Assembly: GCA_963848295.1 (NCBI GenBank)
Contig: CAWKDB010000011.1
Coordinates: 512,001-576,000, forward strand
Length of the DNA stretch: 64,000 nucleotides
DNA from: an uncultured delta proteobacterium
GTDB taxonomy: Bacteria; Myxococcota_A; Polyangia; Haliangiales; Haliangiaceae
Direction: 5' to 3'
This document shows, in pieces, positions 1-6,404 of the stretch. The notes below the pieces were generated by a model. The model was not told the origin of the DNA. It saw only the letters and a list, made by a program, of their open reading frames with translations, and searched no databases. The first letter of the stretch is position 1. Each line of letters begins with the position of its first letter. A program made the translations under genes and the position numbers.

Positions 1-81
1 CGGGATCGCCTTGGTCGCGGGTAAGAACCGCGTTCCGAGGCCAGCCGCAGGGATCACCGCCTTACGGACCTGGTGCGCCAT
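1..81 (-). CDS. galU: UTP--glucose-1-phosphate uridylyltransferase, N-terminus only (runs off window start)
   Basis: Manual translation from ATG at 81: [27 protein letters not shown], the GalU N-terminal signature; not in the ORF track. Confidence 0.9.
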
Positions 82-113
82 GACCGGGCCACCTTACCAT
101 CGGCGTCGGACAC

Positions 114-1142
114 ATGGCCGAGCACCGCCCGTTCCCGCCATCGCCGCGCCGGCGAGCCCTCGCGCGAACCGCCGGGCTGTCGGGGGCGAGCCCGATCGCG
201 ACCGCGGCGATCGGCTGGGTTGCCGCGACGATCGCGATCGCGGCGATCGCGCGCACGGCGGCGTCCGCGCTCGGTGGCTCGGTCGCGGCGGCGTGCTCTG
301 GCTCGGCGACGGCGGTGCAGCCCGGCGCGATCGTCGGCGCGATCGCCGCGGTCGCCGGTCCGCTGCTCGGCGCGGTCGCGCTCGCCGCGATGATCGCGCA
401 CGTGGCGCAGACCGGCGCGTTGTGGTCACCGCGCCGCAAGATCGCGGGCGCACCGAGCTTGCCCGCGGGCGCCGGGCCGCGCGTTCGGCGCGCGGGCCTC
501 GAGCTGTCGTTCGCCGCCGCGATCGGCGCGGTCGGCTTCGGCTGGTTGTGGACGAGCGCGCCGCGGCTCGCCGTGCTCGTCGATGGAACCGCCTGGCCAT
601 CCGGCGATGCGGCGGGTCGCGAGGCGCTGCTCGGCGCCGGTGCGACGCTCGTCGCCGGCGCGCTCACCGCGTTCGCGATCGGTTACGTCGTGCTCGGTGC
701 GATCGATGCGCTGACCCGCCGGCTCGCGCTCGGTCGAGCGCTCGCGATGACCGCTGCCGAGCGCCGCGAGGACGACCGCCTGTCTGCGGCCGACCCGCGC
801 TGGCGAGCCGCGCGCGCCGCCGCCGCGCGCGATGGCCTCGGCGATGCGATCGCGGGCGCGAGGCTCGTGGTGCTCGGTGACGACCTCGCGGTCGCGGTCG
901 CCTGGGACCCGGTCCGCTGCCCGAACCCGATGCGCATCGCGAGCGGTCGCGCCGCGCGCGCCACGCAGATCATCGCGTACGCCCGGCGCTATCAGATCGC
1001 GGTCCATCGCGAGCCGGCGCTCGCAACTTTGGTGGCCCGGAACACGGTGATTTCCGAGGAAGCGTGGCCTCGGTTGGCAGAGATCATCGCGGCTTGCGCT
1101 GGGAGTGACAACACTATTGCGGTGCGCCAACGCGAGAGGTAA
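114..1142 (+). CDS. Divergent FlhB/SctU-like type III export switch protein
   Basis: HRPFPPSPRRRALARTAG resembles the FlhB N-terminal KTE.PT.KR...AR..G; hydrophobic TM region; MTAAERREDDRLSAADPRWR resembles MSKQEVKDE.K..EGDP..K; AVAVAWD...P.RIASG and ARRYQIAVHREPALA match the FlhB C-domain; NPTH motif absent. Confidence 0.75.
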   Translation: MAEHRPFPPSPRRRALARTAGLSGASPIATAAIGWVAATIAIAAIARTAASALGGSVAAACSGSATAVQPGAIVGAIAAVAGPLLGAVALAAMIAHVAQTGALWSPRRKIAGAPSLPAGAGPRVRRAGLELSFAAAIGAVGFGWLWTSAPRLAVLVDGTAWPSGDAAGREALLGAGATLVAGALTAFAIGYVVLGAIDALTRRLALGRALAMTAAERREDDRLSAADPRWRAARAAAARDGLGDAIAGARLVVLGDDLAVAVAWDPVRCPNPMRIASGRAARATQIIAYARRYQIAVHREPALATLVARNTVISEEAWPRLAEIIAACAGSDNTIAVRQRER

Positions 1143-1152
1143 TACGCCCCGC

Positions 1153-2109
1153 GTGAAGCTCTCTCAGCTCGTATGCGCATCGCTCTTGATCGTTCCCGCC
1201 GCCGGTTGCATCGATACCGCCAATACCTCGGACACCGAGGGCGACAGCAGCTCGACGACGTACGTCAACGTCACCGACACCGACAGTGCCGACGGGCTGT
1301 ACGACCTGCAGGGCAAGCTCGCCGCCGAGTTCGCGGAGACCTGCGGCGATACGTTCTGCGAGGGCGAGTACTCGAACCTCACGCCGCTCGGCCTGCAGTG
1401 CTCGGTCACGAGCAAGCGCGGCGACATCCACGATTGCGCGTGGACGTTCGGCGCATCGCAGTTCCTCGTCAACCCGACCGCCGCGACGCTCGAGATCAAC
1501 GCGCCCACGTTCACGTGCCACTTCGCGCCGAAGACCTCGACCACCGCGGCGAAGCTGTTCGCGCTACTCGACGGCGCCGACTCCGCGATCGATACGGTGC
1601 TGCCCGGTTCGTCGACCTCGATCTACGACAGCTTGGTCGATTGTTTCCAGCACCCGGACGGCGCGACGCCGATCTCGATCGTCGCGACCCCGACCCCGAC
1701 CTACGTTGCCGCGAGCGATTACTACGTGAGCGCGGCCGGCAAGGCGAAGTGGGCGGCGGCTCAGAAGGCGCTGCTCGACGGCTTCAACAACGTCTGCGGC
1801 GACACGTTCTGCGGCAGCGACTATGGCGATCTGCAGTCGCTCGGCTTCGAGTGCTCGATCACCAAGTCGACCGGCAACATCAAGTCGTGCGCGTGGGTGT
1901 TCGCCGGCAACTTCGCGGAACCGGACAAGACCGGCAAGCTCGGCGAGACGATCCAATCGTGGAACTGCGCGGTCCACGCGCCGACCACGCTCGCCGCGAT
2001 GATCACGACGTTGACCGCGACGCTGCCCGCGGGCAGTGAAGACCCGATCCATCGCACGCTCGACGGCCTGAACTCGGCGTACGACGACATCGGCAACTGC
2101 CTGCCGTAG
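1153..2109 (+). CDS. Cys-rich putative lipoprotein with two tandem CGDTFC domains
   Basis: GTG start at 1153 gives a signal peptide ending AAGC (lipobox-like); internal duplication CGDTFCEGEYSNL..LQCSV..CAWTF / CGDTFCGSDYGDL..FECSI..CAWVF. Confidence 0.7.
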   Translation: MKLSQLVCASLLIVPAAGCIDTANTSDTEGDSSSTTYVNVTDTDSADGLYDLQGKLAAEFAETCGDTFCEGEYSNLTPLGLQCSVTSKRGDIHDCAWTFGASQFLVNPTAATLEINAPTFTCHFAPKTSTTAAKLFALLDGADSAIDTVLPGSSTSIYDSLVDCFQHPDGATPISIVATPTPTYVAASDYYVSAAGKAKWAAAQKALLDGFNNVCGDTFCGSDYGDLQSLGFECSITKSTGNIKSCAWVFAGNFAEPDKTGKLGETIQSWNCAVHAPTTLAAMITTLTATLPAGSEDPIHRTLDGLNSAYDDIGNCLP

Positions 2110-2123
2110 CGACGGCGCGCTGA

Positions 2124-2798
2124 TCAACGCACGAGCTGTGCGATCGCGATCGCGAGGGTCGCGACCAGGCTCGCGGTGATCATGACGAGGGCCGCAGGTG
2201 CTGCTGCGGCGGCAGGAACGAAACGCGCGCTGCGGCCGGCGACTCGCAGGCCTGCACCGGCGGCGAGCTCGACGACCGCGGCGGTGAGCAACCACGGGGT
2301 CGCGAGCCGGATCGCCGCGGGGATCAGCGCACCGAGCGTGGCGAGCACGCCGGGGGTGGTCGTGGCGAGCGCTGCGCCGGATGGCAACGCGCGATGACTG
2401 TCGAGCACTGCGCGGATCACCGCGATGTGGCCATCGAGCCCGACGAACACCGCCGCGGCGAGCACGGCGAACAACGCGGCGTACGGCCCACCCGCTCCCG
2501 CACCGAGCTGGCTAGAAGCGGAGACGCGATCGACGAGCCGGCCGGCGGTCGCCGCCGCGACGAGCGGGAGCGACGCGATCACACCGAGGGCGGTACCGAG
2601 CACGAGCTCGCGCGCGGCGACGAGCCAACCGAGGTCGACCGCGGCGCTCGCGTCGACCACCATCAGCGCGGTCCACAGGCCGGTCGCGAGCGCGAGCGCG
2701 GCCTGGGCGATGCGCGGGATGCCGCCGACGAGCGAGGTCAACACGAACACCGCCGCTGCTCCACGCAGCGACAGGATCGCGAGCGCCGCTAGCGTCAT
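2124..2798 (-). CDS. Divergent FliR/SctT-like export gate subunit
   Basis: ATG at 2798 overlaps the stop of the fliQ-like gene; very hydrophobic; RELVLGTALG, AGRLVD and VFVGLDGHIAVI resemble FliR motifs; last in the O-P-Q-R order. Confidence 0.75.
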   Translation of the reverse strand: MTLAALAILSLRGAAAVFVLTSLVGGIPRIAQAALALATGLWTALMVVDASAAVDLGWLVAARELVLGTALGVIASLPLVAAATAGRLVDRVSASSQLGAGAGGPYAALFAVLAAAVFVGLDGHIAVIRAVLDSHRALPSGAALATTTPGVLATLGALIPAAIRLATPWLLTAAVVELAAGAGLRVAGRSARFVPAAAAAPAALVMITASLVATLAIAIAQLVR

Positions 2799-3070
2799 CC
2801 GCGCGCCGTGCCGATCGTCGTGATCAGCGGCCACAACGTCGCGGCGAACGCCTGCAGCTGGTGTGCGATCGCCGGCGCGAACAACGCGATCGCGACCCCG
2901 ACCGCCGCGACTCGAGGCGCGAGCGCGACCGCCGGATCTTGGATCTGCGTAAAAGCCGCGACGAGCCCGGTGACCACACCCGCGATCACCGCTGCGACCA
3001 GCAACGGCGCCGCGAGCAACAGCGCGAGCAACGCGCCTTCGCGCATGATCGCGACGAGGCCAGACGTCAC
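2795..3070 (-). CDS. FliQ/SctS-like export gate subunit
   Basis: 91 aa from GTG at 3070 (overlapping the fliP-like stop); LAAPLLVAAVIAGVVTGLVAAFTQIQD...APR matches FliQ/SctS. Confidence 0.85.
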   Translation of the reverse strand: MTSGLVAIMREGALLALLLAAPLLVAAVIAGVVTGLVAAFTQIQDPAVALAPRVAAVGVAIALFAPAIAHQLQAFAATLWPLITTIGTARG

Positions 3071-3741
3071 GCGTAGCCTCTGAGCAACGCATCGATCAGC
3101 AGGCGCCAGCCGTCGACCGCGACGAACAGCAGCAACTTCAACGGCAGCGCCACGACCTGCGGCGACGTCGCCTGCAGCCCGAGCGCGGCGAGCGCTAGCC
3201 CGACGATCAGATCGATGATCAGAAACGGCACGAAGATCACGACCGCGATCGCGAACGCCTGGCGCAGCTCGGTCGTCACGAACGCCGGGCCGAGCACCCA
3301 CAGCTCGCGGCCGTCGGCTTGACGGCCCATCGTATGGGCGAGCTCGGTGAACGTTTCGCGATCCTTTGCGCCCGCGTGCTTGTCGAGAAACTCGCGCAAC
3401 GGCTCCACCGCACGCTCGGCGGCCGCGAGCTGGCCCTGATATTCGGCGGGCACCAGCTCGTGCAGCGCGTTGTCGAGAGAGCCCGGGGCGGGCGCCGGCG
3501 CGACCTCGGTGCTCTGCGCAGCCCTGGCCATCGCCAGCCCGACCGGCGCCATCACGAAGAACGTCAGCACGAGCGCGAGCCCGGTGACGACGAGCCCCGA
3601 CGGTGCGTCGGGCGCGCCGATCGCGTTGCGCACGAGCGACAGCACGACCGAAATCTTCACGAAGCTAGTCAGCACCAAGACGATCAGCGGCACGATCGCG
3701 ATCGTCGCGAGCAGCGCCGCGTTGCCCAAGCCGCCGGTCAC
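3067..3741 (-). CDS. FliP/SctR-like export gate subunit
   Basis: GTG start at 3741; motifs TSFVKISVVLSLVRNAIG, LALVLTFFVMAPV, PAFVTTELRQAF, FVPFLIIDLIV, LPLKLLLFVAVDGW; no cleavable signal peptide (SctR-like). Confidence 0.9.
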   Translation of the reverse strand: MTGGLGNAALLATIAIVPLIVLVLTSFVKISVVLSLVRNAIGAPDAPSGLVVTGLALVLTFFVMAPVGLAMARAAQSTEVAPAPAPGSLDNALHELVPAEYQGQLAAAERAVEPLREFLDKHAGAKDRETFTELAHTMGRQADGRELWVLGPAFVTTELRQAFAIAVVIFVPFLIIDLIVGLALAALGLQATSPQVVALPLKLLLFVAVDGWRLLIDALLRGYA

Positions 3742-4130
3742 GGCGTCTCGCCCGGTGGCGGCGCCGGCGGCGGTGGGCGCTTGCGGCCGAGCGCGCGGGC
3801 CACGAGGTCGGCGAAGCCCGGGCGCTCGACGACGCGCGCTCGCACCTCGCTGCCATCGAGCTCGGACAGCACCGACAGGCCCATCTCGCTCGTCCCGACG
3901 AGCAGCGTCTTGCCCGCGACCTCGACGACGTAGAGCGATCGCCGAGGCTCCAGCGGCAGGCGCGCGACGACGTCGAGCACGTGCGCGCCACGCGTGCGGC
4001 CGGTCGCCATCCATCGGCCGAGCACGCGCACGGCCACGACCGCGACGATGCTGACGACGCCGAGCACGATCAGCGAGGTGACGAGCAGATCACCGTAGCC
4101 AGCTCCACCAGACACGCCATTCCCGGGCAT
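3738..4130 (-). CDS. FliO-like export gate assembly chaperone
   Basis: One N-terminal TM, then LDVVARLPLEPRRSLYVVEVAGKTLLVGTSE, typical of the FliO cytoplasmic domain; directly upstream of the fliP-like gene; ATG at 4130 preferred as start. Confidence 0.8.
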   Translation of the reverse strand: MPGNGVSGGAGYGDLLVTSLIVLGVVSIVAVVAVRVLGRWMATGRTRGAHVLDVVARLPLEPRRSLYVVEVAGKTLLVGTSEMGLSVLSELDGSEVRARVVERPGFADLVARALGRKRPPPPAPPPGETP

Positions 4131-4200
4131 GGGCGTGGTGTTACCAAGCCGGTCTGACGTTGCCGGGATCACCGGCGACTCCGGGTCTTCGAGCTCCCCG

Positions 4201-4233
4201 AAAACGAACACGGCCCCCGAGGGGGCCGTGTTC
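4201..4233 (-). terminator. Intrinsic terminator after the OB-fold lipoprotein gene
   Basis: Perfect 12-bp stem gaacacggcccc/ggggccgtgttc with a 4-nt loop, followed by GTTTT on the minus strand, 20 nt past the stop at 4254. Confidence 0.8.
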
Positions 4234-4253
4234 ACCCGAGTCGCTCGCTCTGG

Positions 4254-5834
4254 CTACATGCCCGTGCAGGCCGTGCCGGTGCCACCCGTCGGCGGAGCCG
4301 CCGTGAGCAGGATCTCGTAGCTGCCCGCGCCGGTCGTGTCGTACGTCCAGATGCCGGTCAGGTTCGCGTAGCAGGTGCCGATCGCATCGGCGGTATAGCC
4401 GGCGCCGAGCATCGCGGTACCGACCGAGATCACCGTGCCGCCCGAGGTCAGCTTGCCGAAGTGGCCCGCGATCGCGGTCGTGATCTTGAACTGGCTCGCC
4501 GGCGTCAGCTTCACGTACGAGCCGATCAGCGGGTGGCCGTTCGCGTCCGCCGACAAGCTCGTCATCGTCGCCGTGGAGTTCAACGTTGCCGGCGTGCAGG
4601 TCGCGACGTCCTTCGTGACCTGGAGGCCCGCGAGCTCGATCTCGCCTTCCGGCGCGGTCGACCCGCTCGACTTGAACGAGCTGACCGTTCCAACGAGGTC
4701 GACCGTATCACCGACCGCGAGCCCGGTCGGCAGCGGCTGGCCGCCGCCGTACATGTAGATGCCCTGGTCGGCCGCCGCGGTGCCGGCGGTCGCGAGGTAC
4801 AGGTTCGTGCCGTTGATCGCGGTGACGCACGAGCTGGCGATCAGCACGCCGGCGGCCGGCAGCGTCGGGTTCGCCGGATCGGCGTCGCCCGCCTGGTCGA
4901 TCGCCTTGATCGTCGTGGTCGTGTGGCAGGTGTCGGCGGTGATGATGCAGTTGTCGTCGTTACAGTCGGCGAAGCCGTTGCCGTCGTTGTCGATGCTGTC
5001 GCCGCACACCGTCTCCGCCGCCGGGCAACCGGTGCCGCCGGTGACGAGGTCCGCCGACGTCCGCGGCAGCACCAGGTAGTCGTAGAAGTAGTCGACGATG
5101 CCGGTCACGCTCGACAGGCACGTGTTGCGCGCGACGCCCGACATCGTGATGTCGGACAGGCTGCCTTCGACCTTCGCGACGCCGGTGATCCCGAACGAGT
5201 AGTCGTCGGCCGGGGTCGGCATCGTCGAGCCGAACGCCTTGGGCGCGCCGAGCGCGGCGACGTTGGTCATCGTCACGAGCACGCCGTCCCATTGCTTCCA
5301 CGCGGCGGAGAAGTTCGGGCCTTGCGCGTCGGCGTCGCTCATCTGGCCGTACATCAGCGCGTCGACGACGGCGGGCGCCGGCACCGAGCCCGTTCCGGTC
5401 TTCGTGATCGTCATCGTGCCGCCGGCGACCGGCTCGAGCTCGACATCGGTGCGGCCGGTCGGATCGGCGTTCGAGCCGGTGAGCGCGAACTCGTCCTTCA
5501 CCGCGCCGCTGAGGCTGATGATGTCGCCCGGGTTCAGCGTCGCGACCGTCGCGGCGTCGCCGTGATAGACGAGCACGCCGGAGTTCGGCCCACCCTCGGG
5601 CTCTTCGATCCAGAAGTTGCCGACCGTGCCGCCGAAGTTGTCGATCGCGGTGACGACCACGCCGGCGACCGCGACCTGCGTACCAGCGGCCATCATGGGG
5701 TCCTGGATCATCTGGATGGTAACGGTGCCGCCGTTGGGTGCATCGCTGCCACCTGGGCTGTCGGGACCGTTGGTGCTGCTACGGCAACCGAAGAGCGCGA
5801 GTCCGAGCGAGGCGACGACGAACGAGTTTCGCAT
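4254..5834 (-). CDS. Lipoprotein with repeated OB-fold-like domains and a Cys/Asp-rich metal-binding motif
   Basis: Lipobox LFGC; two similar blocks (GVVVTAI..FWIEE..SGVLVY..GDIISLSGAV / SCVTAI..LYL..QGIYMY..GDTVDLVGTV) resembling YhcR/ExeM OB folds; central ETVCGDSIDNDGNGFADCNDDNC. Confidence 0.6.
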   Translation of the reverse strand: MRNSFVVASLGLALFGCRSSTNGPDSPGGSDAPNGGTVTIQMIQDPMMAAGTQVAVAGVVVTAIDNFGGTVGNFWIEEPEGGPNSGVLVYHGDAATVATLNPGDIISLSGAVKDEFALTGSNADPTGRTDVELEPVAGGTMTITKTGTGSVPAPAVVDALMYGQMSDADAQGPNFSAAWKQWDGVLVTMTNVAALGAPKAFGSTMPTPADDYSFGITGVAKVEGSLSDITMSGVARNTCLSSVTGIVDYFYDYLVLPRTSADLVTGGTGCPAAETVCGDSIDNDGNGFADCNDDNCIITADTCHTTTTIKAIDQAGDADPANPTLPAAGVLIASSCVTAINGTNLYLATAGTAAADQGIYMYGGGQPLPTGLAVGDTVDLVGTVSSFKSSGSTAPEGEIELAGLQVTKDVATCTPATLNSTATMTSLSADANGHPLIGSYVKLTPASQFKITTAIAGHFGKLTSGGTVISVGTAMLGAGYTADAIGTCYANLTGIWTYDTTGAGSYEILLTAAPPTGGTGTACTGM

Positions 5835-5978: not shown

Positions 5979-6404
5979 CTACGCGGCCGCCGTCGGCGCG
6001 AGCCCGACGAGCTCGATGAACGCCATCGGGGCGGCATCGCCCTTGCGAACCCGGGTCTTTAGCACGCGGGTAAAGCCACCTTTACGGGTCGCGAAGTGCG
6101 GGCCGATCTCCGAGAACAAGCGCGCGAGCACTTTGTCCGTCTTGATCGTCTGCGCCGCCATGCGATGAGCGTGCACGACCTGTGCGCGCTCGGCCTTCGT
6201 GGCCTTGTCGCCCTTGGCGACGATCGCGTGGACGGACACACCCCAGCTGATCGTGGCTTCGGCGAAGCCGCGAAGCTCCTTGGCCTTGGCCTCGGTGGTC
6301 TCGATCCGCCCATGCTCGAGCAGCGAGGTCACCATGTTGTTGAACAGCGCCTTGCGATGCGAGGCGTTGCGACCGAGCTTCCGACCAGATTTCATGTGGC
6401 GCAT
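5979..6404 (-). CDS. rplQ: 50S ribosomal protein bL17
   Basis: [20 protein letters not shown]...[12 protein letters not shown]; follows rpoA. Confidence 0.98.

Follow-up and report, generated by a model that had tools for sequence, protein, structure and literature searches.

The closest described relatives of the protein studied here are flagellar FlhB and the injectisome SctU proteins (YscU, EscU, SpaS), canonically autocleaving switch proteins with the Asn-Pro of NPTH at the beta1-beta2 turn. The purpose of the autocleavage is debated: length measurement, a conformational prerequisite and ejection of an inhibitory domain have all been proposed (excerpts of PMC4620466 and PMC13344023). The SpaS variant N258A is not processed, so the asparagine is needed for cleavage, and an uncut SpaS mutant exports early substrates and not later ones (excerpts of PMC4620466). 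In the flagellum, the switch is flipped by FliK-dependent removal of the cleaved domain, which a covalent link would prevent. Early substrates dock at a pocket within the FlhB C-domain, formed in Salmonella FlhB by A286/P287 together with A341 and L344 (excerpts of PMC13344023).

Among non-flagellar type III secretion systems (T3SS), the 'Myxo' systems of Myxococcales occur as short and long loci (Abby & Rocha 2012, PMC3459982, in part). They are labelled 'needleless' in excerpts of PMC3459982, PMC12075869 and PMC10433427, and the first of these says that they lack SctF. In the available parts of the other two, a role of T3SS* in prey lysis is described for M. xanthus only. The M. xanthus systems are T3SS* (MXAN_2434-2464) and T3SS(2) (MXAN_5643-5654); our comparison rests on Myxococcales-type loci, not on the M. 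xanthus proteins.

The window, by which we mean the whole stretch of 64,000 nucleotides analysed, encodes an SctU that shares with FlhB and the injectisome proteins the membrane part, the linker, the C-domain fold and a gene adjoining sctRST/fliO. The equivalents of the FlhB pocket residues P287 and A341 are kept as well. Unlike these proteins, it has no Asn-Pro, and its turn is one residue shorter; the N->A mutants engineered in FlhB/SctU have a natural counterpart in it. The system around it resembles the Myxo T3SS in having sctRSTUV, N, Q and J with fliO, and the two are neighbours in the SctU tree. However, Myxo genes lie in contiguous loci that retain NP(T/V/I)H and include sctI-like and needle-like genes, and the system of the window differs in all of these. 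Its genes lie at five sites, its sctJ is truncated, its sctL is joined to sctN, and no sctI, needle-like or ruler gene was found. Judged by gene content and arrangement, it is a system close to the Myxo T3SS that departs from it in two features, SctI and the contiguous locus. The T3SS of Chlamydiales likewise has core genes scattered over several loci (excerpts of PMC3459982), but it has a secretin and its CT091/SctU is autocleaving (title of PDB entry 3t7y), whereas the cleavage site is gone in the window SctU. In the open literature (subscription papers and supplements aside), we found neither a myxobacterial SctU that naturally lacks NPTH nor such a dispersed system described.

Gene content of the window

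The export genes of the window, the sequence motifs discussed below and the two genes that anchor the locus are as follows.

1..81, minus strand: 5' end of what we take, from translation and synteny, to be a galU-like gene; locus anchor, with what we take to be priA next, left of the window
114..1142, plus strand: sctU, SctU/FlhB-family export-gate subunit of 342 aa (PF01312, AF2 model, Foldseek)
873..884, plus strand: L254-G255-D256-D257, beta1-beta2 turn (alignment to PDB FlhB)
921..932, plus strand: P270-N271-P272-M273, with N271/P272 at Salmonella FlhB A286/P287 in the register of the PDB FlhB alignment
1077..1088, plus strand: A322-E-I-I325, putative equivalents of A341 and L344 (numbering counted on from the PDB FlhB alignment)
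2124..2798 (start approximate), minus strand: sctT/fliR (Pfam Bac_export_1, 46.8 bits)
2795..3070 (start approximate), minus strand: sctS/fliQ (Pfam Bac_export_3, 54.8 bits)
3067..3741 (start approximate), minus strand: sctR/fliP (Pfam FliP, 187 bits; SctR model 167.7 vs FliP model 156.1 bits)
3738..4235 (start approximate), minus strand: fliO (Pfam FliO, 43.4 bits)
5979..6404, minus strand: presumably rplQ, last gene of a ribosomal-protein operon and the other locus anchor (translation and synteny)

The gene order rplQ-fliO-P-Q-R-U-(galU)-priA was found repeatedly in relatives across the class, and the nearest named sctR loci were from Kofleriaceae/Haliangiales. Compared with the ancestral order fliO-P-Q-R-U-galU-priA, sctU is inverted in the genus of the window, with 32 bp between its start and that of the divergent galU (window 81-114). 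The ancestral orientation is retained in G035 (L055). Two further reading frames lie in the locus. The one at 1105-2109 (+), 334 aa, between sctU and sctT, probably carries a lipoprotein signal and contains two Cys-rich repeats; it had no significant Pfam match, and the related loci searched contained no homologue. The other, at 4254-5834 (-), 526 aa, lies between rplQ and fliO, is lipoprotein-like and without Pfam match, and is also found in L041, L047, L048 and L052.

Cleavage turn and docking pocket of SctU

The reading frame at 114-1142 (+) is open and full-length, with a complete membrane part and the cytoplasmic domain. Its product matched the family profile PF01312 (Bac_export_2) with 83.7 bits (cut-off 24.4). 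On the NCBIfam models it scored 58.9 bits for SctU and 46.2 bits for FlhB, both far under the curated cut-offs, and its identity to the flagellar FlhBs of its own class was 20-24%. It also matched the short FlhB-like proteins (TIGR00789, 27.9 bits), which are similar to the C-domain and have no cleavage site. These proteins comprise nothing but the C-domain (84-position model), whereas the window SctU is full-length and membrane-spanning.

A sequence-only reading had claimed that this FlhB/SctU homolog lacks NPTH and has LGDD at 873-884 instead. The alignment with PDB FlhB chain 36hu_K1 bore this out, placing the window residues ARLVVLG-DDLAVAVAWD opposite ADVIVTNPTHYSVALQYD, and it sharpened the register: the Asn is replaced by Gly, one residue is deleted, and D-D follows. 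A three-residue G-D-D (G255-D256-D257, positions 876-884) hence takes the place of the four-residue N-P-T-H, and L254 is the counterpart of the T/V preceding the cleavage Asn. The loss is shared by the relatives. In an alignment of the best 120 of 210 homologues, the window protein counted in, all 120 had a three-residue loop (GDD in 89, GDG in 14, ADG in 9, others in 8), and the cleavage position was G in 111, A in 9 and Asn in none. The same-genus orthologues with a readable motif region were without Asn-Pro in 26 of 26 cases. The few homologues whose NCBI names were shown came from Kofleriaceae, Myxococcales and Deltaproteobacteria MAGs.

The AlphaFold2 model of the window SctU (mean pLDDT 88) places G255-D257 in a tight hairpin turn joining strands 251-254 and 258-265. 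Overlaid on known C-domains, the model kept the SctU-C fold, with Foldseek TM up to 0.86 (EscU-C) and an rmsd of 1.4-1.8 A vs EscU, YscU, CT091 and FlhB. Uncleaved mutants ranked at the top of the Foldseek matches; this was dismissed as evidence, such mutants being simply single chains.

Selection on sctU was estimated as dN/dS (Nei-Gojobori). In the six closest motif-lost orthologue pairs, the values were 0.15-0.27 for the whole gene and 0.08-0.22 for the C-domain. Three more distant pairs gave 0.27-0.46, and two pairs with the genome of the window gave 0.55-0.6 with dS near saturation. About 90 SctU positions were conserved in at least 90% of the best 120 of 210 homologues. The gene is under purifying selection in close relatives, and the low ratios there argue against decay and for a maintained gene. 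Sequencing error, chance or a pseudogene as the source of the motif loss were rejected because the loss is common to all 120 best homologues and all 26 readable same-genus loci, together with the dN/dS of the close pairs.

Because the cleavage Asn, which is required in SpaS (excerpts of PMC4620466), is absent, the window SctU is predicted to remain in one piece, without autocleavage. It is a member of the FlhB/SctU family that lacks the defining feature of the autocleaving switch.

Another Asn-Pro occurs at 271-272, and SctU might still be cut or switch by another route, through this PNPM or an outside protease, so that the export hierarchy persists. Externally cleaved SpaS was functional (excerpts of PMC4620466). 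However, N271 was present in only 2 of the best 120 of 210 homologues (mostly I/V at this position), and the residue corresponds to the Ala of the canonical 'xAP' after strand 2, not to the cleavage turn. PNPM was thus rejected as a substitute cleavage site; it aligns with the docking pocket, and the claimed loss stands. As no ruler or rod gene was found either, we regard cutting or switching by another route as very unlikely. P272 was conserved in 120/120 of the same homologues, A322 in 119/120, and position 325 was I/V/L in 115/120. Since P272 and the putative A341 counterpart A322 are conserved, the C-domain appears to have lost its cutting site and kept its docking surface.

A second export set in the genome

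The genome of the window (G000; 7.8 Mb, 85% complete) carries a complete flagellar cluster at C10:3356889-3392134, including the hook, FliK, flagellin and its own FlhB with NPTH. Its second export set does not form a contiguous locus and is dispersed over five separate sites on contigs C2, C10 and C11.

Window, minus strand and plus strand: fliO-sctR-sctS-sctT (minus) and sctU (plus), by Pfam profile matches
C10:4726408: sctV, stand-alone; SctV model preferred, 564.8 vs 481.9 bits
C2:1471452-1472891: sctN, with an sctK-like gene upstream; SctN model 539.7 bits vs 462.8 for flagellar FliI
C10:265228: sctQ, beside folD and parAB
C2:~751060-751542: mini-sctJ, by custom profile

The core genes of a non-flagellar system (sctRSTUV, sctN, sctQ and sctJ) were all found, sctJ only in a truncated form. 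This mini-SctJ is a lipoprotein of ~160 aa with a lipobox, the second ring motif and a membrane anchor only; the first ring motif is missing, as it also is in L123-L130. The gene in G000 was missed by Pfam YscJ_FliF and TIGR02544 and recovered by a custom profile. In the genus, all that is apparently left of sctL is an N-terminal piece joined to sctN (G000; L103, L105-L107), and no stand-alone sctL was present at the sctN locus of G000. In other families, sctL and sctN are two distinct genes (L091, L092, L096, L098). A T3SS secretin, whose absence is a trait of Myxo systems, was not seen at any of the five sites.

With a full flagellar cluster in the genome and fliO in the window locus, the window gene could be a spare or regulatory flagellar FlhB, e.g. 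an early-locked competitor of the FlhB with NPTH. But non-flagellar systems of Myxococcota commonly include fliO (excerpts of PMC12403147). In the SctU tree, a quick tree with visible long-branch attraction (the flagellar FlhB of G035 is drawn next to the motif-lost clade), the window gene fell on the non-flagellar side (SH-aLRT 99), adjoining the contiguous Myxococcales loci (89). Rod/hook domain matches were found in 16 of 36 same-genus genomes (the 36 include the unpublished genome G010), and 12 of 26 same-genus sctU carriers were without any. The dispersed system is independent of the flagellum on this last count. With the non-flagellar tree position, the separate flagellar cluster and the retention of sctU where rod/hook matches are missing, the window gene does not group with the flagellar apparatus, and a flagellar role is highly improbable.

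The truncation of sctJ, the sctL fragment and the missing stand-alone sctL could also mark the second apparatus as a slowly decaying relic that exports nothing, with the NPTH loss as one lesion among many. SctU and SctT lie on long branches and have low model scores, sctT is diverged, and no secreted substrate was identified. The relic is nevertheless unlikely: the reading frames are open across the genus, the roughly 90 conserved SctU positions and the low dN/dS of close pairs speak for upkeep, and separate sctV and sctN genes are retained across most of the genus, flagellum-less genomes included.

Rod, needle-like and ruler genes in relation to the cleavage motif

Many orthologues at this locus retain NPTH, NPDH or NPEH. 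Elsewhere the motif is altered to NSEH (G042), DGDR (G053), GEGQ (G052), AGER (G038, G041) or DSMS (G099). In four genomes, SctU stops right after the linker and the whole C-domain is deleted (G039, L066; G059, L068; G047, L070; G121, L199). These loci are priA-linked, except L070, which showed no link within the fetched stretch. No split-off C-domain gene was found within the loci of G039, G059 and G047 (best E 0.2), and in two of these three the stop is directly abutted by galU or priA. Trees of linked or partner genes required between 4 motif changes (PriA tree, careful) and 8 (concatenated tree, quick). The contiguous Myxococcales-type loci with readable SctU had NP(T/V/I)H in 25/25, so the 'needleless' label by itself is no predictor of motif loss.

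These 'needleless' loci appear to encode a needle/pilin-like subunit. Two small genes precede sctJ in Myxococcales loci, one SctI-like and one needle-like. The latter lies immediately ahead of sctI and sctJ, and its product (~150 aa) is highly conserved at the C-terminus.

L246:2961-3416: needle-like gene; also in 23 other Myxococcales-type loci (L237-L276) and in L399-L402

Among 17 rows, the C-terminus gave sub-threshold matches to HrpF (11), HrpA pilin (9) and T3SS_needle_F (5), and 11% of its Atlas neighbour cluster carry the needle family. The alignment found no match among PDB sequences. Modelled with AF2, 75 residues formed a single long helix with a low pTM (0.37). From these matches, the needle-like protein is a candidate for the SctF reported absent from Myxo systems (excerpts of PMC3459982).

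The presence of three genes was compared with the SctU motif; the genomes counted include non-independent kin, several are 80-90% complete, and in many of them the searches scored only some of the candidates (for sctI, 113 of up to 299). Matches to sctI were found in 26/27 Asn-Pro genomes (4 of the 27 in the profile; G199 missed) vs 0/20 motif-lost genomes. SctI was not detected in any of 10 same-genus genomes. The needle-like gene, searched with a profile built from Myxococcales-type loci only, was matched in 16/16 Asn-Pro vs 0/14 motif-lost genomes, none of them in the profile. Ruler matches outside the flagellar cluster (E<=1e-6) were found in 22/27 Asn-Pro genomes (15 of the 22 in the profile) vs 0/18 motif-lost genomes. 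The ruler counts cover 52 genomes minus 7 with an unread dispersed SctU motif (G170, G001, G044, G046, G054, G249, G229). They were obtained with a profile of 26 rows; an earlier 7-row profile (A2) missed even the FliK of G000.

Two kinds of ruler candidates were set aside. L364 (G111) was a false positive, a recombinase-like coiled coil, and was excluded from the A4 profile. Weak partial matches (E 0.004-0.009) in four motif-lost genomes (G003, G047, G052, G059) and comparable second matches in NP genomes were considered noise.

Five Asn-Pro genomes had no clear ruler (G155 a weak match; G180, G268, G051 and G057 none), and the Myxococcales loci yielded none; for this reason, sctI and the needle-like gene track the SctU motif better than the ruler does. 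A PilZ-like gene and sctQ flank a FliK/SctP-like T3S4 (ruler) gene in G037, G048 and G060. No ruler separates the two in G000, where the start of the PilZ-like gene is some 60-80 bp away from sctQ, or in seven same-genus genomes and G039, where they are likewise adjacent. This adjacency alone proves little because f10 genomes retaining NPTH likewise have no ruler adjoining sctQ.

On well-supported branches there were 4 independent contrasts, each in the expected direction or without difference (sign test p 0.125), and on the unfiltered tree there were 8. In fast-evolving lineages, an apparent absence of the sctI, needle-like and ruler genes could reflect failure to recognise them and not true loss. 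When G000 was searched in six frames with loosened filters, the best E was 0.26 for sctI and 3 for the needle-like gene, and the only ruler match was the flagellar FliK.

We consider it likely that the window gene is the SctU of a second, scattered non-flagellar export machine, predicted to stay uncut and probably held in one fixed export mode. A switch would act on behalf of rod, needle-like and ruler genes, and as none of these turned up in G000 for this apparatus, a single mode is likely. SctU would still wrap the SctRST gate, and its cytoplasmic domain would stay covalently attached, with the early-substrate pocket (P272, A322) retained. With the rod, the needle-like subunit and the ruler gone, there would have been no assembly stage to leave, and selection on the cleavage Asn may have lapsed; other lineages may have reached the switchless state by deleting the C-domain. 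What results would be an exporter in the inner membrane, driven by the ATPase, that passes one substrate class into the periplasm or on to another outer-membrane conduit. The sequence-only reading had spoken of an apparatus with no hook or needle to measure. This holds for the second apparatus, where sctI, needle-like and ruler genes were not found in the 85% complete genome and their presence in relatives tracks Asn-Pro. It does not hold for the cell as a whole, whose flagellar genes include those for a hook, FliK and an FlhB with NPTH.

The same losses could be read as a functional machine that no longer exports protein and whose gate, SctV ring and ATPase now serve as a membrane scaffold, an ion conduit or an envelope-sensing complex. 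Every recognisable secreted structural substrate is gone, four lineages dropped the substrate-docking domain entirely, and the genes are located among housekeeping genes. Such a role is quite unlikely, as the ATPase, the C-ring protein and the early-substrate pocket residues are conserved, fitting continued substrate handling.

On what autocleavage is for, the relatives amount to a natural experiment: Asn-Pro persists with rod and needle-like subunits and was lost several times, in different ways, where both are gone. This co-loss suggests that cleavage matters only if an axial structure must be finished first. More tentatively, and as a possibility to which we give appreciably less credence, Kofleriaceae and several other Myxococcota may have independently made a hierarchy-free inner-membrane translocase, shedding needle, rod, ruler and autocleavage together. 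They would have done so through an uncleavable domain (early-locked) or domain deletion (late-like), and the gate would be kept as a vertically inherited, housekeeping-like periplasmic export route. What remains in this soil myxobacterial family would be a minimal type III machine of gate, SctV, ATPase, C-ring protein and mini-SctJ. Its substrates would reveal what type III export does without a needle.

Some further loci were observed alongside. The flagellar remnant of G035 (L038, L315) is a parallel case: fliF/G/H/I/J, fliM/N/O/P/Q/R, flhB, flhA, flhG and an flgL-like relic are present, no rod, hook or FliK match was found, and its FlhB reads APGE, not NPTH. In G001 (L313, L314), fliF, flhA, flhG and an flgL-like relic were seen, with no rod/hook match. 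An unrelated non-flagellar T3SS locus at L268:8735 onward (record titled Paracoccus sp.) has an SctU with the cleavage turn DGNR. G040 of the same order (L079, L110, L119, L334, L400) has a low-GC genome of 1.6 Mb (98% complete) with no rod/hook match, and it retained the dispersed system with an NPDH SctU, a ruler, sctI and the needle-like gene.
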